A program made the position numbers and the translations under genes. DNA of 64,000 nt from an uncultured bacterium (GTDB lineage Bacteria > Krumholzibacteriota > Krumholzibacteriia > LZORAL124-64-63). The notes beneath the pieces are model-generated. The model searched no databases. It had not been told where the DNA came from and saw nothing but the letters and a program-made list of their open reading frames with translations. Of the stretch, positions 6,579-64,000 are shown piece by piece (within the stretch, counting starts at the first letter, position 1; every line of letters begins with the position of its first letter). The stretch covers positions 608,001 through 672,000 of the forward strand of contig CAVSGO010000007.1 of NCBI GenBank assembly GCA_963727525.1, read 5' to 3'.

Positions 6579-6616
6579 CGCTGCGAGAGAGAGACCCCAG
6601 ATCCGGGGGTGTTCCG

Positions 6617-7426: not shown

Positions 7427-7441
7427 TCCCGGGAGTGGAGC

Positions 7442-8989: not shown

Positions 8990-9019
8990 TCGCTGCGCGC
9001 CGGCGAGGAGGCTGGTTTG

Positions 9020-9367
9020 ATGACGACGCCGGCGGCGGCTGCGCAGGAGAGACTGCTGGGGCTGCTGGGCCTGGCCCGCCGGGCCGGCAAGCTGGCCGTG
9101 GGCGCCACGGCGGTCACGCAGCTCGTACGGAGCGGTGCGCGACCGGTGGTGGTGATCGCCGGCGGCGTCGGCGCCTCGCAGCATCGCAAACTCACGGCTC
9201 TGCGGCCGGTGCGCGGAGTCGTGGACGGATTGGTCGATCGTGACGAGATGGCCCATCGCCTCGGGCGCAACGACCTGGTGGTCGTCGCCGTGGCCGATCG
9301 CGGATTCGTCGCGGGACTGATGGAGCTGGGACTTGTCCGTGAGGGGTCGCCCGCGCCGGATGCGTGA
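9020..9367 (+). CDS. L7Ae/L30e-family RNA-binding protein (YlxQ-like)
   Basis: LLGLLGLARRAGKLAVG...LGR..VVVAVADRGF; located between nusA and infB; GAGGAGG RBS. Confidence 0.85.
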   Translation: MTTPAAAAQERLLGLLGLARRAGKLAVGATAVTQLVRSGARPVVVIAGGVGASQHRKLTALRPVRGVVDGLVDRDEMAHRLGRNDLVVVAVADRGFVAGLMELGLVREGSPAPDA

Positions 9368-18388: not shown

Positions 18389-18480
18389 AGCCGTACGTCG
18401 TTCAATGTGCGGGCCGTTCCGGGACTGATAGCTTTTCAAAAGTAGCGATCGACCGGTATCGCGGCCAAGGGATAGGTGCA

Positions 18481-19446: not shown

Positions 19447-19481
19447 ATGAAGTCGAACGCCCATCCGACCTACGTTCGATC

Positions 19482-20807
19482 GTGGCGAATACGTTGCTGT
19501 CACGGGTACGGTTGGGGCTAGCGATGCGGCGGATCGGATCAATCGTTCTTACAGTCTACGTATGTCTATATTTTGCGATCTTTCTCACCCGAGCTGATGG
19601 CTACCTAAACTTGAAGGGCTACCTCCCTGTTCCCCGTTCAGTCCTAGTCGCTGTCTTGTCGATGCCACTCGTATTTTACTCTTGGGCATTTCATCACTCC
19701 AAGCGGGATGGCGAACCTGGGATTATTCAGGTCCTTTACGCAGCGCGCAGTATTTTCGTCCCATTCCTTTTACTTATAGCCTGGGTGCTGATCTCGACGT
19801 TAATGTTTCACGCCAATTGGGATCAGCACGGCTACTTCATAACATTGTTCGTGAACGATTTATTCGTCTTTGTCTTGTCGTTGATTATCGCGACGCCAGT
19901 TGCAATTTCTCGCCACTGGCGTTTGATCGTACGTTTTGCGTTGTTTTGTATGGTGGCTTCGATCCTAATTGATCTTGTCAGGCCGGGTACGTTTTCACCG
20001 CTAACGAGCAGAGGCGCCGGGTTCGCTGTCAACGCCAATATGGGTGCGTTTTTTACCGCGATATTGCTCGCCGGTTCTCTCGAATACGGCAAGTTCCAGC
20101 GGAATCTACTATATCTAATCCCGGGAGGGCTGGCAATACTGGCAACACTTTCGCGTGGTGGCGCAGTACTTTTCGCGCTCATTCTCGTGGTCTTGACTAT
20201 CTGTATCGGCCGTAAGAATAATTTCATGGATCTAAAGATGAAAGCCGTTTGGAAAAGTGTTGCAGTCGCCGTTTGCCTTATAGTGGCTATTTACGTGGCG
20301 TTCCAGTACGGCAAAGATCGATCGGATTTTGTGGGATCTCTTCTTAGCAATAATCGTGTCTTCCAGTTCGCGGCCGGAACACTTTCAGGGTCACGCGGCG
20401 AACCTCGCCTAAAATTGCTGCATGAATATTTCTATCTGATCGGCGAGAAACCCCTAACGGGTTGGGGGGCGGGATTCAGCGGGACACGTGCGCTCGGACC
20501 GCATAATGAATATCTGCTGATGTGGGTGAACCATGGACTCGTTGGCCTAGTGGTCTATCTCTGGTTTGTGGCAGGGACTCTTCTCTATTTTTTGTCGAGG
20601 CGTCTGTTAGAGGGATTCGTTGTTGCGATCGCCTTTGCGGTCGAAGGATTGTTCAGTCACACACTTTTCGAGCAGCAACCGCTAATTGTTCTGCTCGCCC
20701 TTCTCGTCGCTGCAACATGTAGCGGTGGGAGCCGGTATCGCCAACCTGGCATTGACGCGGGCGGACCTCCGGGTAGCGAGCAGGCTCACGGCGGAAAGGT
20801 GTGTTGA
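19482..20807 (+). CDS. O-antigen polymerase/ligase family membrane protein (Wzy/WaaL-like)
   Basis: Many hydrophobic segments; NANMGA, TLSRGG, PLTGWGAG, PHNEYL motifs; glycan-cluster context. Confidence 0.8.
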   Translation: MANTLLSRVRLGLAMRRIGSIVLTVYVCLYFAIFLTRADGYLNLKGYLPVPRSVLVAVLSMPLVFYSWAFHHSKRDGEPGIIQVLYAARSIFVPFLLLIAWVLISTLMFHANWDQHGYFITLFVNDLFVFVLSLIIATPVAISRHWRLIVRFALFCMVASILIDLVRPGTFSPLTSRGAGFAVNANMGAFFTAILLAGSLEYGKFQRNLLYLIPGGLAILATLSRGGAVLFALILVVLTICIGRKNNFMDLKMKAVWKSVAVAVCLIVAIYVAFQYGKDRSDFVGSLLSNNRVFQFAAGTLSGSRGEPRLKLLHEYFYLIGEKPLTGWGAGFSGTRALGPHNEYLLMWVNHGLVGLVVYLWFVAGTLLYFLSRRLLEGFVVAIAFAVEGLFSHTLFEQQPLIVLLALLVAATCSGGSRYRQPGIDAGGPPGSEQAHGGKVC

Positions 20808-20808
20808 C

Positions 20809-22131
20809 GTGAATCGCGAGGGGGTGACGGCCGCACAGGGAATCCTTGCTAGATTCGGATTGTCTCGAACGGGCGCCGTCGGTCAAGCCGTGACACTCAT
20901 GACAGGCGTAGGTGTATCCCAGATTATTGCATTTGTCGCTACCCCAATTCTCACGCGCATCTATCAGCCGGCCGATTTCGGGCAACTCGCAGTCTTCATA
21001 TCAGTGGTGAGCGTTGTGACGGTGGCTGCCTCGGGGCGGTACGAGCTCGCAATACCCGTAGCGGAGTCGCCTGACGACGCATCTGCGCTCGCAATCTGGA
21101 GTGGAGTGTTGGCCTTCGGAGTAACCACGGTGCTGGCTGCGTTGTTATGGCTATGGTTGACATTGACGCCTACTGCACGATTCGCGGATGTGATTCAGCA
21201 GACATGGTGGACCATTCCACTTGCGGTCTGGTTTTTTGGGACTTGGAAGGTGCTCAATTTCTGGTACACCAGACAAGAGCAGTTTCGACGGATTTCCGTG
21301 TCCCATATCCTGCGTGGATTAGTGACGGTGGGGGTACAAGGGGCTCTCGGTTTCATGGGCTCGCTCGGCGCATTGGGACTCACATTGGGTTATGTCGCGG
21401 GACAGTTCTCGGCCACCGCAATCATGCTGCAAGGATGTGCGCCGAGTTGGTCACTCGAGCGTTTGAGAGGTGTCGAATGGCGTGAACTCCGTCGGGTGGC
21501 GGTCAAGTATAGCGATTTCTTGCGATTCGGGACGGGGCAGGCCCTGGTGAATTCGCTGTCGCAAAATGTCGCGGTCCTGGTTGTGGCTCAGTTCTTCACA
21601 AACGGCGTAGTAGGCCTCTATGCACTCGCGTATCGCATCGTCATGGTACCAATCAACTTGGTAGGGAATTCGGTTCGGCAGATCGTCTACCAACGGCTCG
21701 CCGTGGCGGATCCGGGGGTGCGACGGTATCAAACCTGGCGGCGTTCAACCATGCTGCTAGCAACGATTGCGCTCGGCCCGGTGGTGGTTCTGGCGATATT
21801 CGGCCCGGCGCTTTTTGCTTGGTTGATGGGCGCAGAATGGCGGACGAGTGGTGTCATTGCGCGCGTACTCGCTATCCCACTTGCTATGTCACTCGTCAAT
21901 CCACCTACGACAAGCGTAATGCCGATCCTGCAAAAACAACGCGTCCATATGATTTATGAAATCGTTAGCGTGGTGCTAAGGGTCAGTTGCCTCGTGCTCG
22001 GCGGGTTGGCGGGAAATGTTTTGCTCGCCGTCGGAGCGGCGGGCGGCGTGAATGTCGTCATGAACCTATGGCTGATGGGCTACGTGGCAAGGCTCTTACG
22101 CCGTGAGGTGCAACGTGTGGCCTCGACGTGA
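20809..22131 (+). CDS. wzx: Oligosaccharide flippase (Wzx family)
   Basis: QIIAFVATPILTRIYQPADFG, GRYELAIP, VGLYALAYR, GAEWRTSG. GTG start at 20809 is inferred. Confidence 0.85.
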   Translation: MNREGVTAAQGILARFGLSRTGAVGQAVTLMTGVGVSQIIAFVATPILTRIYQPADFGQLAVFISVVSVVTVAASGRYELAIPVAESPDDASALAIWSGVLAFGVTTVLAALLWLWLTLTPTARFADVIQQTWWTIPLAVWFFGTWKVLNFWYTRQEQFRRISVSHILRGLVTVGVQGALGFMGSLGALGLTLGYVAGQFSATAIMLQGCAPSWSLERLRGVEWRELRRVAVKYSDFLRFGTGQALVNSLSQNVAVLVVAQFFTNGVVGLYALAYRIVMVPINLVGNSVRQIVYQRLAVADPGVRRYQTWRRSTMLLATIALGPVVVLAIFGPALFAWLMGAEWRTSGVIARVLAIPLAMSLVNPPTTSVMPILQKQRVHMIYEIVSVVLRVSCLVLGGLAGNVLLAVGAAGGVNVVMNLWLMGYVARLLRREVQRVAST

Positions 22132-23281
22132 CGACGAACGCGGTGTGGAAGAACCGCGTTCCGGTATAGCAAGCTTTGCTCGCCGCGATATCGCGGTCTT
22201 TCTTCCCTCCCTAGGCGGAGGCGGGGCGGAGAGGGTCGTGGTTCATCTCGTCAAGGAATTCAGACGTCGAGGTATCGATGCCGAAATCGTAGTTGCGGGT
22301 AAGGTTCAAGGGGGAGCCTACATCGATCCCGAATTCCCGGTACGAGAACTAGGCGCCGGAAGGGTCGCTAGTTCTTTAGTGCGCCTCATTGCATATCTGC
22401 GGGAGACACGACCGCACTGTCTCATGACAACACTCGCACATGCGAATGTAGTTGCAATCGTCGCGAATTGGCTCGCTGGGGGAGAATCGCGACTGGTGGC
22501 GCGAGAGGCGAACATGGTCAGCGCTGGACGATCGACTGGATGGCGGGGGCGTATCGTGGCGTCGTTGCAGCGAATTCTCTATAGGCATCTCAATGCCGTG
22601 ATAGCTGTGTCCAACGGTGTTGCCGACGACCTGACCCGGGAGACTGGTGTTCCTAGTACCAGAGTCAAAGTGGTCAGAAACCCGATTGATACTGCGATGA
22701 TCACAGAGAAGGCGGCGAGAAATGAAGAACACGATTGTCAATCGGCACATCGTCGGCCGTTCGTCTTGGCAGTTGGGCGGCTCAGCGTCCAGAAGGACTA
22801 TCCCACCCTCATTAATGCGTTCGCGGCCGTTCGTACTCGGCGCGATGCTCGCCTTGTGATATTGGGGGAAGGGCCGCTGCGCCCGGAGTTGGAACAACTC
22901 ATTGGTAAGTTGGGACTAGCGGAATTTGTCGATTTGCCCGGCTTTATCTCGAATCCCTATGCCCTCATGGCACAAGCGAGCGTGTTCGTACTGTCAAGCC
23001 GTTGGGAAGGCCTGCCTAACGCGCTCATCGAGGCGATGGCGTGCGGAGCAAGGGTAGTCGCGACGGACTGCCCCAGCGGACCGCGGGAACTCCTAGAGGA
23101 TGGTAGACTTGGAAGACTCGTATCTGTCGGGGATGTTCAGGAACTTGCGGATACGATAGTAGATGAGTTGGGGCGGCCGAAACGGCCGGATGTCGCTTCC
23201 TATGTCTTGGAACGCTATCGCGTAGGCTCCGTGGCGACAGAGTATCTGGAAGTCCTTTTGCCGGGCCGCCAAGCGAGGTGA
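22103..23281 (+). CDS. GT4 family glycosyltransferase
   Basis: LGGGGAERV, AVGRLSVQKD, SSRWEGLPNALIEAMACG, DCPSGPRE. Exact start uncertain. Confidence 0.9.
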   Translation: MRCNVWPRRDDERGVEEPRSGIASFARRDIAVFLPSLGGGGAERVVVHLVKEFRRRGIDAEIVVAGKVQGGAYIDPEFPVRELGAGRVASSLVRLIAYLRETRPHCLMTTLAHANVVAIVANWLAGGESRLVAREANMVSAGRSTGWRGRIVASLQRILYRHLNAVIAVSNGVADDLTRETGVPSTRVKVVRNPIDTAMITEKAARNEEHDCQSAHRRPFVLAVGRLSVQKDYPTLINAFAAVRTRRDARLVILGEGPLRPELEQLIGKLGLAEFVDLPGFISNPYALMAQASVFVLSSRWEGLPNALIEAMACGARVVATDCPSGPRELLEDGRLGRLVSVGDVQELADTIVDELGRPKRPDVASYVLERYRVGSVATEYLEVLLPGRQAR

Positions 23282-23285
23282 TCAA

Positions 23286-24455
23286 GTGCGTATAGTCCAT
23301 GTAGTCGCCGGCCTGGGTGGCGGTGGAGCCGAGACGATGCTCTACCGACTGCTTAGCCACGACAAGGAGACGCATTTCGACCACGCCGTGGTGTCGCTCA
23401 TGGGACCCGGCCGACTGAGCGATGGTTTTCGCGCCCGAGGCGTCCCCGTGACCTATCTCGGGTTGAAAAGGGGACAGGTGTCGCTCGACTGTGCTCAACG
23501 TTTGCGCCGTCTCGGGCGCACGCTGACGCCGGACCTGGTCGTAGGGTGGATGTACCATGGAAACTTGGCCGCAAGCTGGTTGCGGCGGTGGGCGCCGCAG
23601 CGGCCACCCCTGGTTTGGAACATTCATCACACGCTGCATCGGCTTGGTGATGAACGTCGCCTGACTCAGTTCGTGATAAAAGCCGGCGCTCTCCTGTCGA
23701 GATCACCTGCCGCGATTGTTTATGTCGCCGAAGTCTCCGCGCGCAGCCACGAAGACCACGGCTACTCGAACATTCACCGCGTTGTTATTCCCAATGGATT
23801 CGATTGTGATACATTTAGATCGGACGACGAGGCGCGGCGAAGAATTCGTGCCCAACTCGGAATAGCAAATGATACGCCGACAATCGGGATCTTCGGGCGC
23901 GCACATGCAGACAAGGACTATGGAAGTTTTTTTGCGGCTCTCGCAAGAGCGCAGGCACGAATGCCGAGACTGGTCGCACTGGCGGCAGGAGCCGGCGTCA
24001 CGGCAGCGAATCAGGACTTGCAGGCGGGCATTCCTGATTGCGCGTCTGCGGGGCAGCTCTGCCTTCTTGGCGAGCGAGAAGATGTCGCGGATTTGATGAA
24101 CGCCGTCGATGTCGTGGTCCTTTCCTCGAGGACCGAGGCGTTTCCGCTCGTAATTGGTGAAGCCATGGCGTGTGGCGTACCATGCGTGACAACGGATGTC
24201 GGTGCGGCGGCGGAACTAGTAGGCGACACGGGCAAAGTCGTGCCGAGTCGTGATCCCCAAGCTTTGGCCGAGGCCATCGTGGCTTTGCTCGCCATGCCCT
24301 ACGAAGAACGCCGGGAATTGGGGCGGCAAGGGCGCCGGCGGATCATCGAACGCTACGGACTGCCGGATGTCGTCGACAAGTATCATCGCCTGTGGGCGAG
24401 TCTCGTCGGTCGTCGCACGAACGTCACACGGGATGAGGGTGGACGTGATGGCTAG
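23286..24455 (+). CDS. GT4 family glycosyltransferase
   Basis: GLGGGGAETML, VIPNGFD, SSRTEAFPLVIGEAMACGVPCVTTDVG. Confidence 0.9.
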   Translation: MRIVHVVAGLGGGGAETMLYRLLSHDKETHFDHAVVSLMGPGRLSDGFRARGVPVTYLGLKRGQVSLDCAQRLRRLGRTLTPDLVVGWMYHGNLAASWLRRWAPQRPPLVWNIHHTLHRLGDERRLTQFVIKAGALLSRSPAAIVYVAEVSARSHEDHGYSNIHRVVIPNGFDCDTFRSDDEARRRIRAQLGIANDTPTIGIFGRAHADKDYGSFFAALARAQARMPRLVALAAGAGVTAANQDLQAGIPDCASAGQLCLLGEREDVADLMNAVDVVVLSSRTEAFPLVIGEAMACGVPCVTTDVGAAAELVGDTGKVVPSRDPQALAEAIVALLAMPYEERRELGRQGRRRIIERYGLPDVVDKYHRLWASLVGRRTNVTRDEGGRDG

Positions 24456-25656
24456 GCGGACTTGTCTTCTCGTAGGCAACTACACGTTTTCGCTGGTGAA
24501 TTTCCGGGGCGATCTGATCCGGGAATTGCAAGGGCTCGGGTTTGATGTCATCGGCTGCGGGCCGCAGCGCGACGTGAACACCGAGCGTGTGCTGGCACAG
24601 CGCGAGGTCCGATTCGTGCAGATCCCCATGGAACGTGTTGGTGCTAATCCGCTTGCCGATCTACGGTCCTTGCTCTTTCTCTATCGTCTATGCCGGCGCG
24701 AGAAGCCCGATCTGGTCTTGAGCTATACCATCAAGCCCGTCATCTACGCTAGTCTGGCAGCTCGAACTGCCGGCTGTCCTCGCATTTTCAGCATGCTCAC
24801 CGGCCTTGGCACGCCCTTCCTGTCGAATGCGATGTCGGTGCGCATCATGCGCGGTCTCATCCGCAACCTCTACCGTCTGGCGCTACGCTACAACGAGAAG
24901 GTGTTCTTCCAGAATGGCGATGATGAGAAGTATTTCCTCGATGCGCGACTCGTGACAAAGCGGCAAGTCGAGCGGACGAACGGGTCCGGGGTGAATGTCG
25001 AGTATTTTGCGGCGCGGCCGGTTCCCGACGGTGCAGCACGATTCCTCATGATGGCGCGGTTACTATCGGACAAGGGCGTGCGGGAGTTCGCGGAGGCGGC
25101 TCGACGGGTCAAGAAAGATCAACCCTCAGCCGAATTCCACCTGGCTGGCATGGTCGAGGACCATCCGAAGGGCATCGCACCCGAGGAGGTTGCCGGCTGG
25201 GAGCGGGCGGGCGTCCTCAAGTACTGGGGCCGTGTCGATGACGTGCGGCCGCTTCTCGAAGCCTGTTCCGTCTACGTGCTTCCGTCGTATCGGGAGGGGA
25301 CGCCGCGTTCCGTGCTGGAGGCAATGGCGACAGGCCGCGCTATCATCACGACAGACGCGCCTGGTTGCCGCGAAACAGTGCAACCGGGCAGGAACGGCCT
25401 CCTCGTACCGATCAAGGACGCGCCGGCCCTCGCCGAAGCCATGGCGCACATGATTGGTGACCCGGCTGGCGTCCGCCGTATGGGGCGCGAATCGCGCGCC
25501 ATCGCGGTCGAGCTTTACGATGTGCGTAAGGTCAACGCGCGGCTCTTGCGCAGCATGGGTCTCGTGTCCGACGCGAAGGGCGACGTGGCAGCCGGTTCGG
25601 CGCGACCTGCCGAGCGTGCCGACAATGCGGCTGTGAGCGAGGAGACGACGCCATGA
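24448..25656 (+). CDS. GT4 family glycosyltransferase (PglA/CapM-like)
   Basis: NFRGDLI, YTIKPVIY, TGLG, FQNGDD, GSGV, ARLLSDKGVREF, LPSYREGTPRSVLEAMATG, TDAPGCRE. ATG at 24448. Confidence 0.9.
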   Translation: MARRTCLLVGNYTFSLVNFRGDLIRELQGLGFDVIGCGPQRDVNTERVLAQREVRFVQIPMERVGANPLADLRSLLFLYRLCRREKPDLVLSYTIKPVIYASLAARTAGCPRIFSMLTGLGTPFLSNAMSVRIMRGLIRNLYRLALRYNEKVFFQNGDDEKYFLDARLVTKRQVERTNGSGVNVEYFAARPVPDGAARFLMMARLLSDKGVREFAEAARRVKKDQPSAEFHLAGMVEDHPKGIAPEEVAGWERAGVLKYWGRVDDVRPLLEACSVYVLPSYREGTPRSVLEAMATGRAIITTDAPGCRETVQPGRNGLLVPIKDAPALAEAMAHMIGDPAGVRRMGRESRAIAVELYDVRKVNARLLRSMGLVSDAKGDVAAGSARPAERADNAAVSEETTP

Positions 25657-26264
25657 CGACCATCTCCCGCTATGGCGGTGACCTGGGTCGGATCGCGGAG
25701 ATCCATCGCGAGGCTTTTCCCGGGTTTTTCCTCGCGCGTCTCGGAATACCGTTCCTGAAGGTCTACTACAACTGGGTCCGCGAATTTCCGCAGGGCATCC
25801 TGATCACGGCCGGCGAGGGCGAGGGCCTCCACGGTTTCGTGGCCGGATTCATCGACTCCCCGGAATTCTATCGCTACTGCCGCAGTCGGCGGCACGAGGC
25901 GATCCTGCCGGTGGCGCAGGGGGTCGTGCGGTCGCCCGGTCTCATCGGCAGGGCGCTCTACAACGTTGCGCGTGTCAAACGCAATGCGAGCGTGACGAGC
26001 GTTTCTGCTGCGGACGAGAGCGAACTCGCCTCGATAGCCGTGCGGCCCGGTGCGGCGAGTCGCGGCCTCGGCGCCAGCCTTGTCACCGCATTCTGCGAAG
26101 CTTCGCGCCAGGCCGGGGCGACAGGTGTCGTACTCACCACCGATCGCGACGACAACGAGGCGGTCAACCGGTTCTATCTCAAGAATGGGTTCGTGGTGCG
26201 GCGCGAGTTCATGAGCGGCAGCAGGCGGGCGATGTTCGAGTACTGGAGGCCACTCGTTCCGTAA
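25653..26264 (+). CDS. GNAT family N-acetyltransferase
   Basis: Acetyl-CoA motif ELASIAVRP..SRGLGASL and NEAVNRFYLKNGF. Confidence 0.88.
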   Translation: MTTISRYGGDLGRIAEIHREAFPGFFLARLGIPFLKVYYNWVREFPQGILITAGEGEGLHGFVAGFIDSPEFYRYCRSRRHEAILPVAQGVVRSPGLIGRALYNVARVKRNASVTSVSAADESELASIAVRPGAASRGLGASLVTAFCEASRQAGATGVVLTTDRDDNEAVNRFYLKNGFVVRREFMSGSRRAMFEYWRPLVP

Positions 26265-55234: not shown

Positions 55235-56221
55235 GTGCTCCGCGACATTGGCCGACGACTTCTAATGGCATGCCTGCTCGTACTGGGGCTGCTCACCGCG
55301 GTCTTCTTCGTGGTCCACGCCATGCCCGGCGATCCGGCGTCGCTGGTATTCGAGTCCGACCTCTCGGCCGGCCAGCGGACGCTGATGCGCGAGCGCCTCG
55401 GACTCGATGCGCCGTTGCTGGTGCAGTACGGCCGCTGGCTCGGTGGCGCCGTGCACGGCGATCTCGGCATGAGCCTGCGCCAGCAACGACCGGTGGCCGC
55501 CGTGGTCGGCGAGGCGATCGGACCCACGCTCCTGCTCACCTTCAGCGCGTTCCTGGTGGAACTCGGCGGTGCGATCCTGGCCGGCGTGGCGATGGCGCGC
55601 TGGCGTGGTCAACGGCGCGAGTGGGCGCTGAACACCGGCGGTCTCGTGCTCTATTCGCTACCCTCGTTCTGGCTCGGACTCATGGCGATCATGGTGTTCG
55701 CGCGCGGCCTGGGCTGGTTCCCCGCCGGTGGCATGCGGGCGCCCGATGCGGCCTACTTCTCCGTCGCGCACCGCGCGCTGGACATGCTGCGGCATCTCGT
55801 GTTGCCGGTCGCGGTACTGGGACTCGGCAACTTCGCGGTGACGGCGCGTTTCGTACGCAACGCGCTGGGCGAGGTGCTCGAGCAGGACTACATCCTCGCG
55901 GCGCGCGCGCGGGGCCTGCCCGAGCGCACCATCATCTGGCGACACGGACTGCGCGCCGCCCTCCTGCCCGTGGTCACACTCGTGGGACTGGGGTTGCCGC
56001 AACTCCTGGCCGGGGCAGTGGTGGTGGAGGAGGTCTTCGCCTGGCCGGGCATGGGCCGGGTGACCATCGCGGCGCTCTTCGCGCGCGACTATCCCGTCAT
56101 CATGGCGACGACGGCGATCGCCGCGGTACTCGTGGTGCTGGGCAACCTCGTGGCCGACCTGCTCTACCAGTGGGCGGATCCCCGCGTGCGGCTGGGAGGT
56201 GAACGTTCGTGGCGCGGCTGA
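55235..56221 (+). CDS. Peptide/nickel ABC transporter permease (DppB/OppB-like)
   Basis: MPGDPA, LGLDAPLLVQYGRWL..GDLGMS, DYILAARARGL, VEEVFAWPGMG, RDYPV. Confidence 0.93.
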   Translation: MLRDIGRRLLMACLLVLGLLTAVFFVVHAMPGDPASLVFESDLSAGQRTLMRERLGLDAPLLVQYGRWLGGAVHGDLGMSLRQQRPVAAVVGEAIGPTLLLTFSAFLVELGGAILAGVAMARWRGQRREWALNTGGLVLYSLPSFWLGLMAIMVFARGLGWFPAGGMRAPDAAYFSVAHRALDMLRHLVLPVAVLGLGNFAVTARFVRNALGEVLEQDYILAARARGLPERTIIWRHGLRAALLPVVTLVGLGLPQLLAGAVVVEEVFAWPGMGRVTIAALFARDYPVIMATTAIAAVLVVLGNLVADLLYQWADPRVRLGGERSWRG

Positions 56222-57102
56222 TGCGACGCGATGCGATACCGGCTCTGCGGAGCTGGCGTGCGGCGTGGCGCGGGCGTCTCGACCTGCGCATCGGCCTCGT
56301 GCTCGTGGCCCTCGCGGTGCTGCTGGCGCTGGGGGCCGACGTCTTCGCGCCGGGCGATGCGGCGGCGCCGGGGCCGAGCGCGGCGCGGTTGCTCGCACCG
56401 GGGCCCGGACACTGGCTGGGGACCGACGCGCTCGGCCGCGGCGTGGCCACGCGCCTCGTGCACGGTAGCCGTGTGTCGTTGCTCGTGGGCTGGGTGAGCG
56501 TCCTCGCGGCGGTCATGGTGGGCGCCTTCGTGGGGCTAGCGGCCGCACTCGGTCCCCGGGTGGTCGATCGCCTGCTGATGGCGGTCACGGATGTCTTCCT
56601 GGCGTTTCCCCGCGTCTTTCTCGTTCTGTTGCTCGTTGCGCTGACGCGACCGTCGCTCCTTCTGGTCATGGTCGTGCTGGGGCTCACCGGCTGGATGGAC
56701 GTGGCGCGGCTCGTGCGCGCCGAGGCGTTGAGCCTGCGCGAACGCGACTTCGTGGCGGCGGCGCGCGGGCTGGGGCAGAACCCATGGCAGGTGGCCTGGC
56801 GCCACGTGCTGCCGAATGTGCTGCCGGTGCTGGTGGTTTCGGCGACCCTGCGCGTGGGGGGGGCGATCCTGCTGGAGTCTTTCCTCAGCTACCTCGGACT
56901 CGGCGCGCAGGAACCGACGGTGAGCTGGGGGGCCATGATCGCGCAGGGACGGGCCTACCTGCTCGACGCCTGGTGGCTGACGGCGTTTCCCGGCATGGCC
57001 ATCGCACTCACGGTGCTGGGTTACAACCTGCTGGGCGACGGATTGCGCACCTGGCTCGACCCGCGCGCCGAGTTGCAGGAGGGCGGCCATGGTTCCCGCT
57101 GA
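56209..57102 (+). CDS. Peptide/nickel ABC transporter permease (DppC/OppC-like)
   Basis: HWLGTDALGR, GSRVSL, ERDFVAAARGLG, RHVLPN, LSYLGLG, SWGAMI, LGDGLR. Confidence 0.93.
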   Translation: MARLMRRDAIPALRSWRAAWRGRLDLRIGLVLVALAVLLALGADVFAPGDAAAPGPSAARLLAPGPGHWLGTDALGRGVATRLVHGSRVSLLVGWVSVLAAVMVGAFVGLAAALGPRVVDRLLMAVTDVFLAFPRVFLVLLLVALTRPSLLLVMVVLGLTGWMDVARLVRAEALSLRERDFVAAARGLGQNPWQVAWRHVLPNVLPVLVVSATLRVGGAILLESFLSYLGLGAQEPTVSWGAMIAQGRAYLLDAWWLTAFPGMAIALTVLGYNLLGDGLRTWLDPRAELQEGGHGSR

Positions 57103-58855
57103 TCTGCTACGCGTGCAGGGGTTGACGGTGCAGTACGCCGGCAGCGACGTGCCGGCCCTGGATGCATGCGACCTGCAGATCGCGGCCGGCGGGACGCTCG
57201 CCGTGGTCGGCCCCTCGGGCAGCGGCAAGACGACGCTGGCTCGCGCCCTCCTCGGTCTGTTGCCGCGCGGCGCGGTGCGGGCGGGCACGCTCACGTGGCG
57301 CGGCCACGAGCTGGGCGACGAGGACCTCTGGCGGCGGCTGCGCGGCCTGGAGATCGGGCTCGTGCTCCAGGATCCGCAAACCGCGCTCAATCCCGTCCTC
57401 ACGGTGGGCGAGCAGATCGCCGCGCCGCTGCGCGCCCACCAGAAACTCGCGCCTGCGGCGGCGGCCCGACGGACCGAGGCGCTCATGGCCGAGGTGCGGT
57501 TGCCCGACCCGGCGCGGCTCGCGCGCTGCTACCCCCATGAGCTGAGTGGCGGCATGCGGCAGCGCGTGGGGGTGGCCGCGGCGCTGGCGGCATCGCCGTC
57601 CCTGCTGGTGGCCGACGAGCCGACCGCGGCGCTGGACGTGTCGACGCAGCGCGAGATCCTCAACCTGCTGCGCTCGCTGCAACGGACGCGGCGGCTCGCA
57701 CTGATCTTTGTCACGCACGACCTCGCGATCGTTCCGCTGGTCGCCGACCGCGTGCTCGTCCTCGCCGAGGGCGTGGTGGTCGAGGAGGGTTCGGTCGCGA
57801 ACGTGATGGCTGCGCCGAGGCACGCCGTCACGCGCGCCCTCGTCGGCGCCGTGCCGCCGGATCGTGCGTCGGCGGAATCGACCCTGCCCGTGCTCGCGGC
57901 GCGAGGCATCGGTGTCACGCTCACGGGGCCGCGTGGTCGGCGGCAGACCGTCGTCACCGATGTCGATCTCGATCTCGTCCCCGGTCAGACACTCGGCCTG
58001 GCCGGAGAATCGGGCTGTGGCAAGACGACGCTGGCGCGTGCGCTCGTGCGCCTCGTGCCGGCTACCGGTTCGTTGCGTTTGGCCAACCACGACCTCTTCG
58101 CGGCGCGCGGCGCGGCGCTGCGCCGGCTGCGTCGCGGCGTTCAACTCGTCTTCCAGGATCCGGCGGCCGCGCTCGATCCGCGGCAGACGGTATTCGATGC
58201 GCTGAGCGACGCGTCGACCGCCTCGGGGCGTCATGGCGAGACGGCTTGGCGGGCGGCGGCGAACCTGTTGGCCGAGGTCGACCTGCCCATCTCGGTGGGG
58301 CGCAGCTATCCCCACGAACTGTCAGGTGGGCAACAGCGCCGCGTCGTCCTGGCGCGCGCCCTGGCCGCGGAACCGTACGTGATCATCGCCGACGAGCCGA
58401 CGACCTCCCTCGATCCGCCCACCCAGGTGCACGTGCTCGAGACGCTGCACGACCTGCAGGCGCGGCGCGGTCTCGCCATTCTCCTGATCTCGCACGATCT
58501 GGGCTTGCTGATGCGGGTGTGCCACCGCGTGGCCGTGATGTTCGCCGGCCGTATCGTCGAGGTCCTGCCTACGACGGGGGGAGGGGAGGCGATGCATCCC
58601 TGCACACGCGACCTGCTCGCCGCCTCGCCGACGGCGCCTCGCGACCTGCAGGAACCCCGGAATGGCGTGCCTCCGCCGCCCGTGGACCCGGTCGCGGCCG
58701 CGCGCCATGGATGCCCCTACGCGGTGCGTTGTCGGCAGCGGCAACCGTCGTGTCTGCAAGCGATTCCCGACCTCCTGCCGGTAGGCTCGGGGCACTTTGT
58801 CCGCTGCCCCATCGTCGCAGGGCCCGTGCAAGAGCAATACATTGACACGGTATAG
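57089..58855 (+). CDS. Fused double ABC ATPase (DppD-DppF-like) with C-terminal Cys cluster
   Basis: GPSGSGKT, YPHELSGGMRQR, ADEPT; second domain GESGCGKT, YPHELSGGQQRR, ADEPT; tail GCPYAVRC..C..C. Confidence 0.93.
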   Translation: MVPADLLRVQGLTVQYAGSDVPALDACDLQIAAGGTLAVVGPSGSGKTTLARALLGLLPRGAVRAGTLTWRGHELGDEDLWRRLRGLEIGLVLQDPQTALNPVLTVGEQIAAPLRAHQKLAPAAAARRTEALMAEVRLPDPARLARCYPHELSGGMRQRVGVAAALAASPSLLVADEPTAALDVSTQREILNLLRSLQRTRRLALIFVTHDLAIVPLVADRVLVLAEGVVVEEGSVANVMAAPRHAVTRALVGAVPPDRASAESTLPVLAARGIGVTLTGPRGRRQTVVTDVDLDLVPGQTLGLAGESGCGKTTLARALVRLVPATGSLRLANHDLFAARGAALRRLRRGVQLVFQDPAAALDPRQTVFDALSDASTASGRHGETAWRAAANLLAEVDLPISVGRSYPHELSGGQQRRVVLARALAAEPYVIIADEPTTSLDPPTQVHVLETLHDLQARRGLAILLISHDLGLLMRVCHRVAVMFAGRIVEVLPTTGGGEAMHPCTRDLLAASPTAPRDLQEPRNGVPPPPVDPVAAARHGCPYAVRCRQRQPSCLQAIPDLLPVGSGHFVRCPIVAGPVQEQYIDTV

Positions 58856-58870
58856 GCCAATCTCTATATT
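58842..58870 (+). promoter_or_regulatory. Near-consensus sigma70 promoter TTGACA-N17-TATATT for the TBDR operon
   Basis: Perfect -35 and 17-nt spacer; overlaps the last codons and stop of the ABC ATPase. Confidence 0.8.
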
Positions 58871-59058
58871 CAAGCACCAGTTGCAAGTATGGACGCTGGC
58901 CGGGAGTTCCGCGCTTTGCGAGTTGCAGGATGACCGGATTGAAGGTTCCCCACACAACGCCAGGCTGAAGGTCGGTGCCTGAGATCATTCAAGTCTTTCG
59001 CGGGTCCGCCCGGTACACCGTCGTGACCGAGGCGGGTTCGTTCGAAAGGAGCCACAGC

Positions 59059-62000
59059 ATGCTCCGGCGTTTCCGTGTCCTGCGGATGCTCGTCGTGTTG
59101 AGTCTAGTGGGGCTGGTCGTTGCCGGCGTCCCATCGCGCGTCTGGGCCCAGGGTGCTCCGGCGATGATCAAGGGAACCGTCGTCGATGGCGAGAGCGGAG
59201 AACTGCTCGACTACGCCAACGTCGTCATCAAGGGGACGACGCGTGGCACCATGTCGCTGGGCGGTGGCGCGTTCTACTTCCGCGACATTCCCGCCGGCAC
59301 CTACACCATCCAGATCCTCTACCTAGGCTACGAGCCGGCCGAGCGGACCGTGACCGTGGCGCCGGGCGAGACCAAGACGCTCGAGTTCCGGATGAAGGTG
59401 ACCATCGTCGAGACCCTCGGCGAGTTCGAGGTCGACGCTGCCAGCTACATGGTCGACGTGAAGGGTATGAAGACCAGCCACGACATCGGCGCGGAGAAAT
59501 TCGAGCAGTTCGCGATCGACTCCGTGGAGGACGCTCTGGCGCGCCAGGCCGGTATCGTGATGCGCGCCGGCCAGCTCTACGTGCGCGGCGGCCGCTCGGG
59601 CGAGGTCCAGACCCAGATCGACGGCGTGTCGGTGGACAACCCCATCGGTGGCGGGACGCTTTCGGTGTCGACCCTCGCCGTCGAGAACGTCCAGGCCGTG
59701 ACCGGCGGTCTCGACGCCGAGTACGGCAACGCGCTCTCCGGCGTCGTGAACATCACCACCAAGACCGGTAGCCGCGAGAAGTTCGAGGGCGGTCTGCGCT
59801 TCCTGACCGACGACTTCGGTCGCCAGGACCGCACCTACACCAACTTCGACCGCTTCGAGTACGGCTTCGGCGGCCCGTCGCCCGTGAAGAACCTCACCTA
59901 TTACGTGTCGGGCGACCTCGTCTGGTCGGACAACGAGAACTTCTCGGTGGCCAACCGTCCCGAGTACTCCATCAATTTCGGCGACAAGAACCTCTTCACG
60001 CTGCGTCGCCGTCAGGCCAACAGTGTGCGTGGGTCGGCGAAGCTGGCCTACTACTTCGACGACAAGAGCAAGAAGCTCCTTACCGCGGAATACACGTACT
60101 CGGCGTCGTGGGATCAGTACTACTCGCCGAACTGGAGCGTCGAAGGTTACGTCCAGAAGCTGATCTACATGCCGCAGGTCATCTCGTTGAGCCGATTCGG
60201 GGGCGACAATGCGGACACGTACCTGTACACGGGCTCGCAGATCCCGGTGTACTACGGTCCCTGGTACGATCAGATGCTGGCGACGGCGCGTCCGGCCGTG
60301 GTGCTCGATTCCCACAACTCCAGCGCCACCCGGCATACCGTGCCGATCATGCAGGTACGTTCGGCCGCGTCCGGCGACGTCTTCACTGTCGCGGCCCAGC
60401 CGTCGTTCGAGGGTTTTCGCTATCCGTATTCGCAGTTCTCGAACGTGGCCGAGGATTCCTCGTACGTATACTTCAATTCGGCCAATAACGACCGCCAGAA
60501 CACGAAGCTCAGCCAGAGCGCCAAGCTGGTCTGGCGCCACAGCCTGAGCGAGGATACATTCTACACGGTGCGCCTGGCGCTCGTGGCGTTCGACACGCAT
60601 GTCGACGTCAATGGCAAGGATCCTTACCAGTACAGTCACGGCGGCATCTACTCTCCGGGGTTGTTCTCGGGACAGACGACGATCTACACCACCGCGAACG
60701 ACTACTACACCGACCGGCTGAATCCGCTGTATGTGACCACAAGCGACTACCCGCGCTGGGAAGAACAGTACAGCCGCACCTATCAGCTCAAGTTCGACCT
60801 GACGAGCAGCCGGTGGAAGGGACACCTGGCGCGAACCGGTCTGCTCTTCGTCTACAACGATCTGGCCGAGACGTCGCTGAGCTCGCCGGCCATCGAGTCG
60901 CGCGACCGCTACACGCTCGAGTACCAGCTCGGTGCGAACCGCAACGTGTTCCATACGTACAATCCCGAGGCCTCGTGGTACATCCAGGACCGCTGGGAAT
61001 ACGAGGGCATGGTGGTCAACTACGGATTCCGCTGGGACATGTTCTCGCCGGGGTCGGCGGCCGAGATCCTCCTGCGGAACAACGACGTCGACCGCAACGT
61101 GGTGAAGTACAAGACGCAGTTCTCGCCGCGCCTGGGCTTCGCGTTCCCGATCACGGAGCGTGACGGCTTCAGCTTCTTCTACGGCCGCTTCATCCAGTTC
61201 CCCGATCGCGCGAATCTCTTCGCGAGCCAGCAGGTGGTGGGCAATCAGGGCACCCTGGGCAACCCCAATCTCAACGCCGAGACGACCATGACCTACCAGG
61301 CCGCCATCCAGCACCAGTTCACCGACTACCTGGCCGGTTCGTTCGCCATCTACTCGAAGGACATCTACGACCTGATCTCGGCGACGCAGGTCACCGACAG
61401 CGAGACCGGCAACACGCTGTACCGGTACATCAACAAGGCCTACGCCTCGGCGCGCGGTGTCGAGCTGTCGCTGAACAAACGGTTCAGCGACAGCTTCAGC
61501 TTCGACGTGGCGTACACCTTCGCGTATGCCGACGGCGTGGCGTCGTCCACGGAGTTCGGTACCAATTCCGAGGGTCTCGCCTACCTGCCGAGCCAGGAGC
61601 TGCCGCTGGACTGGGATGTCCGCCATGCGATCAACGTGGGTCTCTACCTCGCGGAACCTGGCTCGTGGTCAGGTTCCGTGGACATGGCCTACAATAGCGG
61701 CTTCCCCTGGACGCCGAACGACCGCTTCGCCAAGCGCCAGGATCCCTTACTCGAGAACAGCAAGCGTTTGCCGTCGACGTTCAACGTCAACATCCAGTTC
61801 CGCCGCGAGCTGAATGTCTACGGGCAGCACCTCACCCTGGAACTCCAGGGGCTCAACCTGCTCAACGAGGATGAGCCACAGGCCCCGGGGCAGAACATCC
61901 TCCCCGGCCTGCAGAACGCCACGTCCGCGTATTACTCTTACTTGACGGAAACGGGCAAGTTCGGCGGCGCATTCCTGCAGGACCAGAACGGCGACACGTT

Positions 62001-62082
62001 CAACGAATTCATTCCGATCAACGATCCCCGGGTGTTTGGGGCGCATCGCCTGTTCCGGGTCGGACTCGGGTGGAAGTTCTAG
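59059..62082 (+). CDS. TonB-dependent receptor with N-terminal carboxypeptidase-regulatory-like domain
   Basis: Signal peptide; IKGTVVDGESGELLDYANVVIKGT; plug YVRGGRSGE..IDGV, TGGLDAEYGNALSGVVNITTK; FSPRLGFAFPI, GNPNL; C-terminal RVGLGWKF. ATG at 59059 after AAGGAG. Confidence 0.93.
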   Translation: MLRRFRVLRMLVVLSLVGLVVAGVPSRVWAQGAPAMIKGTVVDGESGELLDYANVVIKGTTRGTMSLGGGAFYFRDIPAGTYTIQILYLGYEPAERTVTVAPGETKTLEFRMKVTIVETLGEFEVDAASYMVDVKGMKTSHDIGAEKFEQFAIDSVEDALARQAGIVMRAGQLYVRGGRSGEVQTQIDGVSVDNPIGGGTLSVSTLAVENVQAVTGGLDAEYGNALSGVVNITTKTGSREKFEGGLRFLTDDFGRQDRTYTNFDRFEYGFGGPSPVKNLTYYVSGDLVWSDNENFSVANRPEYSINFGDKNLFTLRRRQANSVRGSAKLAYYFDDKSKKLLTAEYTYSASWDQYYSPNWSVEGYVQKLIYMPQVISLSRFGGDNADTYLYTGSQIPVYYGPWYDQMLATARPAVVLDSHNSSATRHTVPIMQVRSAASGDVFTVAAQPSFEGFRYPYSQFSNVAEDSSYVYFNSANNDRQNTKLSQSAKLVWRHSLSEDTFYTVRLALVAFDTHVDVNGKDPYQYSHGGIYSPGLFSGQTTIYTTANDYYTDRLNPLYVTTSDYPRWEEQYSRTYQLKFDLTSSRWKGHLARTGLLFVYNDLAETSLSSPAIESRDRYTLEYQLGANRNVFHTYNPEASWYIQDRWEYEGMVVNYGFRWDMFSPGSAAEILLRNNDVDRNVVKYKTQFSPRLGFAFPITERDGFSFFYGRFIQFPDRANLFASQQVVGNQGTLGNPNLNAETTMTYQAAIQHQFTDYLAGSFAIYSKDIYDLISATQVTDSETGNTLYRYINKAYASARGVELSLNKRFSDSFSFDVAYTFAYADGVASSTEFGTNSEGLAYLPSQELPLDWDVRHAINVGLYLAEPGSWSGSVDMAYNSGFPWTPNDRFAKRQDPLLENSKRLPSTFNVNIQFRRELNVYGQHLTLELQGLNLLNEDEPQAPGQNILPGLQNATSAYYSYLTETGKFGGAFLQDQNGDTFNEFIPINDPRVFGAHRLFRVGLGWKF

Positions 62083-62132
62083 TTTTCCGCTGCCGGCGGG
62101 CCGTCCCGTCGGTGGGCAGGAGAGGAACGACG

Positions 62133-64000
62133 ATGAGATTGAGCTGCAGCAGGGACACACGCCGACCAGGGATGAGTCTCGTCTCGGCCATCGCCCTCTT
62201 CGCGATCATGGTGAGCGCGGCCTCGGCCTTTGCCTGGAAAGATCCCGATACGTTCGGTGGCGGGCCGTACGATCCCCATAGCGCGCTGGTGACGCACGGC
62301 GAGTACGTCATGAACGTGGGCAACCTCCAGATCAACATCACCAACTGGGGATTGATCGGTTCCTACCCTGGCTCGGGGTACACTTTCTCGGACGCACCGT
62401 CGGCACAATGGCCGGCCGGTAGCGGCAACGAGTACCTGTTCGCCGCAGGTATCTGGATCGGCGGTGTCTTGCTGGGGCAGACGGTGGTCTCGACGGGCCA
62501 GTACCAGCAGGAGATCACGGCGCGCGGCGAGGTCGCGGAGGATACGATCTACGAGGCCAAGGCCGCGCAACTCGTCCGGCCGGCCGGGAACTCGATTGCC
62601 AGCGGCCGCCGCTTTCCCGAACCCGACTCCAATGACGACGGGGACACATTCCCGTCGCCACCGTACGCCTCGGGCGTCCCGCTGGTCGACGAGGAAGTGC
62701 TCAACGGCTACGACGACGACGGTGATGGCCTGATCGATGAGGATTTCGCGCAGATCGGCAACCAGATGTTCGTGACCACGGAGTACGACAACACGCGGCT
62801 TGCCCAGCAGCGGTACCCGGATCACACGCCGATGAATCTGGAAGTGATCCAGTCGACCTACGCCTGGGAGAGCGATCTGGCGGACAACTTCGTGGGATTC
62901 AGCTACGCCATCGCGAATATCGGCGTAACCACGATAAGCAACGTCTACATCGGATTCTTCGCCGATGCCGACATCGGCCCGCGCAGCGGAACGAACGTCG
63001 CGTCCGATGACATGGTGGGCTCCTACTCCGGACCCGTGCGTGCGTCGGATGGGTCCTGGGTACCCGTCGAGGTCGGCTACATGTACGATGCCGCGGAGAA
63101 CAACCGCCTCGACGGCTACTTCGGCATCGCGTTCCTCGGACACGACACCGACCCCTCCGGCCTCCACGCGCCGAAGCGTGTGCAGCTCCGGTCGTTCCAG
63201 CGGTTCTCAGGCTCCTCGAGCTTCCAGCAAGGCGGCGATCCGACCAACGACAACGAGCGCTACGAACTGCTCAGCCGCCAGGAGCGCGATCAGAACTCGC
63301 CCCCGGGCAAGGCCGACGACTACCGGTTCCTCGTCTCTGGCGGTCCATTCGAGACCCTTGCGCCTCAGGATACGTTGCACTTCGACGTGGCCATGGCCGT
63401 GGGGCCGGGGCTCAATGGGCTCCTTTCCGTCTGTGCGGAGGCCACGCTCACGTATTTCGGCAACTACTTCGATCAGATCACCTCGGCGACCAATCATCAG
63501 GACGAACAGTTCAATCCCGGCATGAACGGGCGGGAGGCGCGGGTTTGTCGTGACGACTTCGTGCCGCCCGAGGCCTTCGATCAGATCCGTCCGGACTTTG
63601 GCGACACGTCGTGCGTGTCGCAGAGCTATCTGCTTGCGCAGCCCGCGCTGTCGAGCGCGGAGGTCTTCTCCTACATCGATCCGCTCGGCCATCGCAAAGA
63701 CTGCGCCTACGTCAACCTCGACAACTGTTTCGAGTGCTATCGCCAGAAGCCCCATACCCTGGGACAGTCGGCCGAAGATGCCCGGTGCACCCAGGCCGAT
63801 GTCGAGCAGTACTGGGATTGCAACCAGTCGGACCACGGTCCCGGTTGCACGGGCGTCGACGGCAACGAGACGCAGGTGAAGTGGCTGGTCGGCATGGCGC
63901 CGCCTCCGCCGGGGATGCGTGTCTGGCCCACCGACGACACCGTGCACGTGTACTGGGATGATCTGAGCGAGAATACGCCGGACGTTCGCCTCAACTTGAT
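62133..64000 (+). CDS. Large secreted protein downstream of TBDR (putative T9SS cargo), 3'-truncated; absent from supplied ORF track
   Basis: Manual translation from ATG 62133 (AGGAGAGG RBS): MRLSCSRDTRRPGMSLVSAIALFAIMVSAASAFAWKDP...VGNLQINITNWGLIG...SAQWPAGSGNEYLFAAGIWIG...YDDDGDGLIDEDF...YIGFFADADIG...DYRFLVSGGPF...APPPPGMRVWPTDDTVHVYWDD. No stop seen before the window end. Confidence 0.85.
   Translation, partial: MRLSCSRDTRRPGMSLVSAIALFAIMVSAASAFAWKDPDTFGGGPYDPHSALVTHGEYVMNVGNLQINITNWGLIGSYPGSGYTFSDAPSAQWPAGSGNEYLFAAGIWIGGVLLGQTVVSTGQYQQEITARGEVAEDTIYEAKAAQLVRPAGNSIASGRRFPEPDSNDDGDTFPSPPYASGVPLVDEEVLNGYDDDGDGLIDEDFAQIGNQMFVTTEYDNTRLAQQRYPDHTPMNLEVIQSTYAWESDLADNFVGFSYAIANIGVTTISNVYIGFFADADIGPRSGTNVASDDMVGSYSGPVRASDGSWVPVEVGYMYDAAENNRLDGYFGIAFLGHDTDPSGLHAPKRVQLRSFQRFSGSSSFQQGGDPTNDNERYELLSRQERDQNSPPGKADDYRFLVSGGPFETLAPQDTLHFDVAMAVGPGLNGLLSVCAEATLTYFGNYFDQITSATNHQDEQFNPGMNGREARVCRDDFVPPEAFDQIRPDFGDTSCVSQSYLLAQPALSSAEVFSYIDPLGHRKDCAYVNLDNCFECYRQKPHTLGQSAEDARCTQADVEQYWDCNQSDHGPGCTGVDGNETQVKWLVGMAPPPPGMRVWPTDDTVHVYWDDLSENTPDVRLNL

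Follow-up and report, generated by a model that had tools for sequence, protein, structure and literature searches.

A 64,000-nucleotide stretch of DNA (the window; G+C content of ∼67%), whose proteins are nearest to those of Krumholzibacteriia metagenome-assembled genomes (MAGs), ends in a gene for a TonB-dependent receptor followed by the gene for a large secreted protein that we call X. In related genomes, such a pair is continued by genes for a barrel of the PorV/PorQ family, a GWxTD protein, and usually ExbB, ExbD, ExbD, and TonB, and the pair in the window would be the 5′ part of an operon of this kind. We favor, with a probability of roughly 40%, the reading that this cassette is a TonB-dependent uptake operon in which X would act as a surface accessory, delivered through T9SS (type IX secretion system) and held by the barrel.

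A receptor, X, and a PorV/PorQ-family barrel are conserved together

A scan of species-representative genomes yielded 76 X-family loci, none of them from the window's own genome, and all relatives are uncultured. The neighbors of X were identified with Pfam and NCBIfam in three loci of different clades (L003, L020, and L066), and seed profiles were then run over all loci, the one for the receptor being specific for receptors of the cassette type. Each of these three loci displayed the order receptor, X, PorV/PorQ-family barrel, GWxTD protein, ExbB, ExbD, ExbD, and TonB. A barrel gene lies directly 3′ of X in 28 of the 60 loci with at least 1.2 kb of downstream sequence. Where both sides of X could be assessed (55 loci), receptor and barrel occurred together in 25 and were both missing from 29, with a single locus (L072) having only the barrel and none having only the receptor. 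The PorV/PorQ-family gene that an earlier note on this DNA had predicted after X is present in 25/25 receptor-bearing loci assessable on both sides, and the barrels of four tested relatives all matched the family model NF033709 at 182 to 214 bits (cut-off 90).

Among the 30 cassette loci, a gene for a GWxTD protein was found in 19 of the 21 that could be assessed, ExbB in 14/18, and TonB in 14/17; the complete ExbB-ExbD-ExbD-TonB set was present in 14 of 18. The gaps between genes do not exceed tens of bases in most cassette loci. The distance from the receptor stop to the X start was estimated at ∼0 to 70 nt in most relatives, the exceptions being overlapping start estimates in three loci, 95 nt in one, and the outlier L043. 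Cassettes are spread over several deep clades of three candidate phyla (Krumholzibacteriota, Latescibacterota, and Eisenbacteria MAGs), in agreement with the remark in the earlier note that triplets of receptor, X-like protein, and PorV-like protein recur outside Bacteroidota. The note was right about these three components and overlooked the GWxTD gene, the Ton motor genes, and the secretion-side explanation weighed below.

The GWxTD gene is the second gene 3′ of X, and all four cassette copies tested exceeded the cut-off of TIGR04514 (55–76 bits versus 28). These proteins possess N-terminal signal peptides; we found no solved structure or function for GWxTD and no paper on it in the open-access literature searched. 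GWxTD proteins recur in the cassette neighborhood, with a second, more distant gene located after the Ton genes in L001, L003, L008, L025, L031, L043, and L067. This gene lies ∼7 to 8 kb 3′ of X, and in L003 it follows genes for an outer-membrane efflux protein (OEP) and an ABC ATPase.

A FastTree phylogeny was built from 58 full-length rows, leaving out 19 loci with fragments shorter than 700 aa. On this tree, cassette membership is clustered without forming one clade: six changes are needed, five of them forced by well-supported branches, compared to 17.1 when the cassette labels were shuffled, and none of 500 shuffles gave a count as low as six. Cassette-bearing clades number at least two in Krumholzibacteriota and also occur in Eisenbacteria, with X identities down to ∼30%; the Latescibacteria locus L019 also has the receptor and was too short for the tree. 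The X of the window falls in a clade of 12 rows, 10 of which carry the cassette. Six records titled “uncultured Fibrobacteraceae bacterium” (L001, L002, L007, L008, L010, and L011) group within Krumholzibacteriia clades by both X and operon and may be mislabeled. In the Eisenbacteria locus L066, two genes precede the receptor (4313–7108), one for an EB_dh protein (haem-binding, ethylbenzene-dehydrogenase-like) and one for a barrel that weakly matches Phenol_MetA_deg and the PorV family, a context unlike that of the window.

Loci without the cassette have other surroundings. Among 73 neighbors from the 29 non-cassette loci and L006, a Pfam scan revealed no PorV, a single FadL-type barrel, and, in L052, an ordinary receptor two genes away from X. 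These neighbors also included several further proteins with T9SS tails and large open reading frames (ORFs) of no known family. Unlinked X paralogues often lie among clustered genes for other proteins with T9SS tails, as in the neighbors at 8388–15425 of L058 and those in L075, L076, L010, and L027; the domains of these proteins are of beta-helix, cadherin-like, BNR, or FG-GAP type. The large family-less ORFs that flank X in L016, L059, L061, and L063 may be tandem paralogues.

X belongs to an unnamed family of probable T9SS cargo

The earlier note had pointed to an ORF of more than 620 residues beginning 50 nt past the receptor stop, and we located an ATG at exactly this distance, followed by 622 codons that remain open at the window end. 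The G+C content at third codon positions (GC3) of the receptor and X ORFs is 0.83 to 0.88, like that of other genes in the window. Full-length X is represented by P0003 (962 aa, 100% identical), which is encoded on a contig of 2,365,901 bases. By direct reading, a lipobox Cys is missing from the N-terminal sequence (...AIMVSAASAFAW), consistent with the cleavable, non-lipoprotein signal peptide that the note had described, and this segment was modeled as a helix of residues 12 to 33. The motifs quoted there are likewise all present, namely VGNL (residue 62), ITNWG (69), WPAGSG (93), EYLF (100), DSNDDGD (165), DDDGDGLIDED (194), APPPP (589), and VHVYWD (604), along with nine Cys residues.

Pfam and NCBIfam searches of X matched no family outside of the C-terminal tail, and we regard the protein as probable T9SS cargo of an unnamed family. 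The family is large, with 1375 cluster representatives matching at E ≤ 0.001, the best stretch being mostly the head domain in the matches listed. A language-model atlas yielded only unnamed clusters with T9SS tails, and among the NCBI names of homologues two are “T9SS type A sorting domain-containing protein” and one is “EF-hand domain-containing”. A tblastn search within the window detected neither a further X paralogue nor a PorV-like gene. In P0233 (834 aa), from another genome, an X-family head is fused to the last part of an ABC ATPase of the oligopeptide type (ABC_tran and oligo_HPY). This fusion probably reflects run-through gene calling and hints that X comes right after the ABC ATPase gene in that genome, with no intervening receptor gene.

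The whole-protein model of X, based on an alignment of 66 sequences, is mostly beta (pLDDT 87.6, pTM 0.80) and shows a beta-rich head (∼aa 47–445), the Cys-rich region, beta-sandwiches with a helical insert, a linker, and the tail. Beyond the window, P0003 continues with a second sandwich (aa 766–840), a low-confidence linker (865–878), and a C-terminal domain (880–962).

The tail of X resembles T9SS sorting domains and is predicted to dock on a PorQ-like barrel

The C-terminus of P0003 reads ...NIFVYPNPATRD...GIYLYVV...GKFVVVR and includes the motif ...VYPNPATRD..., in line with the T9SS C-terminal domain (V.PNP motif) anticipated in the earlier note. The strands of the modeled tail (residues 886–960) form a seven-strand beta-sandwich that matches the tails of PorZ (5m11) and PorU (6za2). 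PF18962 had no match to P0003 at E ≤ 1; 10 of 30 distant members of the family scored above the cut-off of a tail model, eight with FlgD_ig (cut-off 27) and two with Por_Secre_tail (36.4 and 28.4 bits). P0003 also weakly matches the tails of PorZ (NF052228, 22 bits versus a cut-off of 260) and PorU (NF033707, 13.5 versus 420). We rejected identity with PorZ, as the match is confined to the tail and the head is a supersandwich, and with the PorU sortase, as again only the tail matches and the head domain has no invariant Cys. SprA, the translocon of T9SS, is encoded 54 kb away and shows only that the system is present in this genome.

The barrels of four cassettes scored higher with the PorQ model (NF033711, 78–119 bits) than with the PorV model (NF033710, 65–88 bits) in every case; these scores lie below the equivalog cut-offs of 220 and 250 bits, respectively, and the barrel was assigned to neither PorQ nor PorV proper. 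BamG was rejected too, with one cassette barrel matching at 15 bits versus 250 and the DUF5723 barrel encoded elsewhere in the window giving no match at E ≤ 0.01. A barrel orthologue of 310 aa, P0289, is 75% identical to the L025 barrel and is carried, like P0003, on a 2,365,901-base contig. It is the candidate barrel of the genome that encodes X, with adjacency to X seen in the relatives only. The barrels (∼70–85% identity) are better conserved than X (52–68%).

A complex model of P0289 with residues 845 to 962 of X scored 0.93, compared to 0.00 for the best of three controls. Of 157 solved complexes, 116 attained this mark, as did 2 of 215 mismatched pairs, counts that apply here only approximately because we supplied the alignments ourselves. 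Contacts agreed by at least 99% among the runs, and the pLDDT of the partner was at least 85. This confident in silico interface supports a putative binding of the X tail to the PorQ-like barrel. Assemblies of T9SS tails with PorV have already been solved structurally.

The head of X is modeled as a beta-supersandwich with acidic loops

Modeling of the head domain alone (96 sequences) provided a well-defined fold (pLDDT 95.0, pTM 0.93). Foldseek related it to non-catalytic N-domains of GH116, GH94, GH15, GH65, dextran dextrinase, and aldose epimerase at TMq values of 0.29 to 0.43 and identities of 7 to 12%, the scores for GH116, GH94, GH15, and dextran dextrinase being 0.38 to 0.43. The fold is seen mainly in such N-domains of carbohydrate-active enzymes. 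A hydrolase or phosphorylase of GH116, GH94, GH15, or GH65 was rejected, since only the N-domain is matched, an (alpha/alpha)6 domain is lacking, the remainder of X consists of Cys-rich and beta-sandwich parts, and no GH family of Pfam was hit. Nor did other searches point to a known enzyme family: a PDB profile search matched tails only, and the N-terminal domain lacks a Pfam or NCBIfam match; a known enzyme family would have refuted the proposal in the note.

Invariant residues of the head, taken from the 96- and 66-sequence alignments, are predominantly acidic. D169, D171, E187, D196, D198, E203, and D204 lie in or near the acidic loops; D219, D278, D373, N71, and G76 are invariant as well, and H231 is nearly so. 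These alignments contain no invariant Cys in the head. Judging from the motif type, the two DxDxDG-type loops are probably Ca sites. The family consensus retains several Cys of X (CAEA, DNCFEC, and GCTG), and disulfides may form within the Cys-rich module.

The receptor has a CarboxypepD_reg extension and does not match the SusC/RagA model

The product of the gene at 59,059 is a TonB-dependent receptor, with plug and barrel both above the Pfam cut-offs. Its signal peptide ends in ...VWA/QG, and the N-terminal extension matched CarbopepD_reg_2 (PF13715, 67.4 bits, cut-off 32.2) and CarboxypepD_reg (PF13620, 62.2 bits, cut-off 32.3). With this extension before the plug, the protein is, by architecture only, a member of the “Oar subclass” of TonB-dependent transporters, a large subclass characterized in passages of one report by CarboxypepD_reg extension, plug, and barrel (PMC6434023). 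NCBIfam gave only generic receptor matches, all sub-threshold, and none of its T9SS-specific models matched. The SusC/RagA family was rejected because TIGR04056 (cut-off 368 bits) had no match at E ≤ 1; in the distant cassette receptor of L066, this model matched at positions 2 to 127 only (54 bits). Among proteins of solved structure, YncD and PqqU are closest in sequence, in the plug region only.

GAAAGGAG lies shortly 5′ of the receptor start codon. A sigma-70-like promoter match is situated in an AT-rich patch ∼190 nt upstream, overlapping the end of the ABC ATPase gene, and suggests that the receptor and X may begin a transcription unit of their own. Two such sites were found versus 0.8 expected from shuffled sequences, and the match is to the consensus only. 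We rejected a riboswitch or other leader RNA 5′ of the receptor, as Rfam gave no hit at the gathering threshold in the whole window and none at E ≤ 1 in 58,780 to 59,120. The features of this region are collected in Table 1.

Table 1. Positions of genes, domains, and sites in the window
Feature	Position	Strand	Details
SprA/Sov translocon of T9SS	3–5564	+	TIGR04189 400.9 bits (cut-off 200), Pfam SprA_N; 5′-truncated by window start
DUF5723 outer-membrane barrel, 434 aa	51520–52824	−	Pfam
Lipoprotein of no known family, 686 aa	52831–54891	−	lipobox LLGAAGC
Opp/Dpp/Nik-type ABC importer	55235–58855	+	permeases 55235–56221 and 56209–57102; fused double ATPase 57089–58855
Sigma-70-like promoter match	58842–58870	+	TTGACA-17-TATATT, 11/12 positions
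TonB-dependent receptor, 1007 aa	59059–62082	+	ATG 59059, TAG 62080–62082
CarboxypepD_reg extension of receptor	59167–59403	+	aa 37–115; Pfam
Plug of receptor	59485–59745	+	aa 143–229; Pfam 31.9 bits (cut-off 23.9)
Barrel match of receptor	60439–61860	+	aa 461–934; TonB_dep_Rec_b-barrel 73.8 bits (cut-off 27)
Receptor-X spacer, 50 nt	62083–62132	+	Shine-Dalgarno-like AGGAGAGGA at 62118–62126
X, 5′ 622 codons	62133–64000	+	ATG 62133, 50 nt past receptor stop; open at window end
Signal peptide of X (Sec)	62133–62234	+	aa 1–34; read from sequence, no lipobox
Family-defining head of X, beta-supersandwich	62271–63482	+	aa 47–450; model
Acidic loops of X, DSNDDGD and DDDGDGLIDED	62625–62744	+	aa 165–204; invariant residues
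Cys-rich module of X	63432–63848	+	nine Cys, aa 434–572; motif reading
Start of first beta-sandwich (FN3-like) domain of X	63897–64000	+	APPPP...VHVYWD; cut by window end

Other genes of the window

The Opp-type importer upstream of the receptor has no adjoining binding-protein gene. Among loci with 10 kb of upstream sequence, it occurs 5′ of the receptor in 8/8 of the closest cassette loci and in 0/8 loci of other cassette clades; it is therefore clade-specific, and we rejected it as a core component. The divergent pair of lipoprotein and DUF5723 barrel genes is syntenic with the opp genes in the same eight loci. NCBIfam provided nothing for this pair except a faint PorV-family match of the barrel (PorV_fam, 22 bits versus a cut-off of 90, N-terminal); being also on the opposite strand and upstream, the barrel was rejected as the predicted PorV. 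The arrangement recalls BamG-BamH, in which a FadL-type barrel, BamG, holds the surface lipoprotein BamH according to one study (PMC12611786).

At the other end of the window, an M28 peptidase gene follows SprA with an 11-base overlap (block 3–6501), and family-less ORFs on the minus strand come next (6572–8380 and 8420–9256). A block of lower G+C content (18,400–25,700; 0.53–0.63 versus ∼0.67–0.70) encodes Wzz, a Wzy/O-antigen ligase-like protein, a flippase, and three GT4 glycosyltransferases, and is flanked by a Poly_export/SLBB protein gene (15,965–18,388) and by genes for a GNAT protein, a DegT aminotransferase, and a sugar transferase. By gene content, it looks like a variable O-antigen or exopolysaccharide island.

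Discussion

In an uptake operon of the kind we favor, X would be exported to the periplasm by Sec and then across the outer membrane by T9SS, with its C-terminal domain as the recognition signal. It would retain this tail, as PorZ does on PorQ and PorU on PorV, and by docking it on the dedicated 310-aa PorQ-like barrel X would be held at the cell surface. There, the Ca-stabilized head would capture, and perhaps trim, a ligand and hand it over to the receptor, energized by the co-encoded Ton motor. The ligand is more likely a glycan, for which the head fold provides a hint; in the window's clade, the adjacent Opp-type importer also allows for a peptide or a metal chelate. A true SusD-like lid position of X, as put forward in the earlier note, is the least supported step and seems doubtful to us. 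It is tentatively conceivable, and in our estimate rather unlikely, that the cassette encodes a distinct outer-membrane machine of uncultured FCB-superphylum phyla in which a TonB-dependent transporter, a T9SS-delivered protein held by a PorQ-like barrel, and the GWxTD protein form one complex, either with a T9SS-docked lid in place of the SusCD lipoprotein lid or as an ancestral, operon-encoded form of the PorF-PorV/PorQ connection of T9SS.

Several points weigh against the uptake operon. The association of X with the receptor is predicted from context, and the downstream cassette genes were read in relatives, the window ending inside X. Linkage of X homologues to TonB-dependent receptors, as posited in the note, holds for part of the family: among the 66 loci with at least 1.5 kb of upstream sequence, 26 have the receptor and 40 lack it. 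Most members of the X family are unlinked paralogues, and these include the closest relative, L058, a sister (59% identity) that has neither receptor nor barrel and is situated among other T9SS cargo genes. L006 (54% identity) also lacks a receptor upstream, and its downstream sequence is short. The P0003 tail scored 17 bits with TIGR04183, under the cut-off of 23. The docking pass may stem from likeness to the solved assemblies of T9SS tails with PorV and is silent on specificity; the same pass is probably to be expected for many T9SS tails. For the head, the fold match has a TMq below 0.45, which makes it weak; it is also generic and points to no ligand. In addition, passages of three reports implicate proteins of the receptor's kind in secretion, namely the TonB-receptor-like PorF (PMC12704123), a receptor that co-purifies with PorV (PMC8564354), and Oar (PMC6434023).

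These secretion roles lead to the most serious alternative, which we nevertheless consider fairly improbable: the cassette could be a T9SS attachment or late-stage module, the receptor corresponding to PorF and X with its barrel to PorZ-PorQ or PorU-PorV. X would then bind a surface glycan such as lipopolysaccharide for cargo anchoring, and the receptor would serve secretion or attachment instead of nutrition. The tails are consistent with this idea, as the PorZ tail was the best NCBIfam match (22–31.5 bits) in the five X-family members scanned and the PorU tail was the top PDB profile match (6za2, E 3.5e-4). So are the PorQ-over-PorV ranking of all four barrels, the conservation of the barrel above that of X, as expected of a machine part, and the frequent association of the head fold with sugar binding. 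The porU-porV genes have the same order as X and its barrel, with a large tail-bearing protein followed by a barrel. Passages of one report describe how SprA and a PorF-like receptor were recovered by co-immunoprecipitation with PorV in Cytophaga hutchinsonii (PMC8564354). On the other hand, each lineage has many unlinked X paralogues (29/55 loci), often beside cargo genes, a pattern typical of cargo and not of machine parts. X is also devoid of the PorZ beta-propellers and the PorU peptidase domain, the barrel stays under the equivalog cut-offs of PorQ and PorV alike, and the clear receptor plug, accompanied in most loci by a Ton motor, fits ordinary import.

X and the barrel might alternatively be a self-contained pair of cargo and cognate anchor, such as a surface enzyme or adhesin, that is uncoupled from the receptor and that by inherited synteny sits between the receptor gene and the main Ton operon of the genome. 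In this superphylum, ExbB-ExbD-ExbD-TonB operons have housekeeping functions, free X paralogues do occur without a receptor, Ton genes are missing from four cassette loci whose downstream sequence spans 5 kb or more, and the upstream context varies by clade (Opp importer, V-type ATPase, or EB_dh). We consider such a pair quite unlikely, given the all-or-none co-occurrence around X (25 with both, none with the receptor only, and one with the barrel only), which is kept down to ∼30% X identity and across three candidate phyla, and the minimal intergenic gaps. Very improbable, finally, is a receptor that works outward like Oar of Myxococcus, with the GWxTD protein or X as its cargo. Oar and its Ton system, as portrayed in passages of the Oar report (PMC6434023), are matched by the CarboxypepD_reg-plug-barrel architecture and by the Ton genes next to the receptor, and GWxTD proteins have signal peptides with no role assigned. 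X, however, already carries a T9SS export signal, the architecture is common among ordinary importers and is treated as a large subclass in the Oar report (PMC6434023), and the proposed likeness to Oar is one of architecture.

The open-access literature searched on T9SS, PorV/PorQ, TonB, GWxTD, and Krumholzibacteria/Krumholzibacteriota contained no description of the cassette; each type of component is known, and the combination is new as far as this literature was searched. Feeding through a TonB barrel with a lipoprotein lid, as in Bacteroidota, is thought to define the outer membrane of the superphylum, and the cassette bears on how phyla devoid of SusD equip their many “orphan” CarboxypepD_reg-type receptors. 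It also bears on the unexplained need for PorF in type IX secretion and on the co-purification of a receptor with PorV, as presented in passages of PMC12704123 and PMC8564354. One transcription-sized block present in three candidate phyla offers four or five proteins for the study of co-assembly and gives the orphan families of the X head domain and of GWxTD their first genomic settings.

Comparison with known systems

The cassette is like the SusCD/RagAB systems of Bacteroidota in having a TonB barrel with a CarboxypepD_reg-type extension followed by the gene for a surface accessory, and in the presumed capture of a ligand with TonB-driven import. In contrast to SusD, X lacks a lipobox, was not matched by a SusD model of Pfam, and was modeled as all-beta (not as a helical TPR fold), which led us to reject membership in the SusD/RagB family. 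The window receptor differs from SusC in having no SusC/RagA match in NCBIfam. X would moreover use T9SS and a separate barrel in place of a lipid anchor, and the operon adds the GWxTD protein and the Ton motor.

PorZ-PorQ and PorU-PorV of Porphyromonas gingivalis share with the cassette a large T9SS-tail protein and a 14-strand barrel of the PorV/PorQ family, and the tail of X resembles theirs. Passages of a preprint describe these tail-bearing proteins as tethered to their barrels (bioRxiv 10.1101/2020.05.13.094771). X differs in having no propellers or peptidase domain and in its many paralogues, and its pairing with a barrel occurs inside an operon with a receptor and Ton genes. A link between a receptor and T9SS or PorV, of the same kind as the cassette gene order suggests, is provided by PorF (PG0534), a TonB-receptor-like protein needed for type IX secretion (PMC12704123), and by CHU_1606, a receptor 32.8% identical to PorF that co-purified with PorV and SprA in Cytophaga (PMC8564354). 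The passages of these papers that describe the two proteins mention no gene cluster like the cassette.

Oar of Myxococcus xanthus has a Ton system of its own, and secretion of PopC, which according to that report passes the outer membrane through the TonB-dependent transporter, depends on it. Oar resembles the cassette in receptor architecture and in the neighboring dedicated ExbB/ExbD/TonB set; the passages on Oar mention neither a PorV-like barrel nor a T9SS tail nor a GWxTD protein (PMC6434023). The type B cargo genes of Flavobacterium johnsoniae are linked, as one report relates, to cognate PorP/SprF-like shuttle genes, and type A tails are assigned there to a single general PorV (PMC12618676). 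The cassette is similar in placing a T9SS cargo gene beside its own shuttle or anchor gene; the F. johnsoniae pairs combine a type B tail with a PorP/SprF barrel, whereas the cassette combines a type-A-like tail with a barrel of the PorV/PorQ family.

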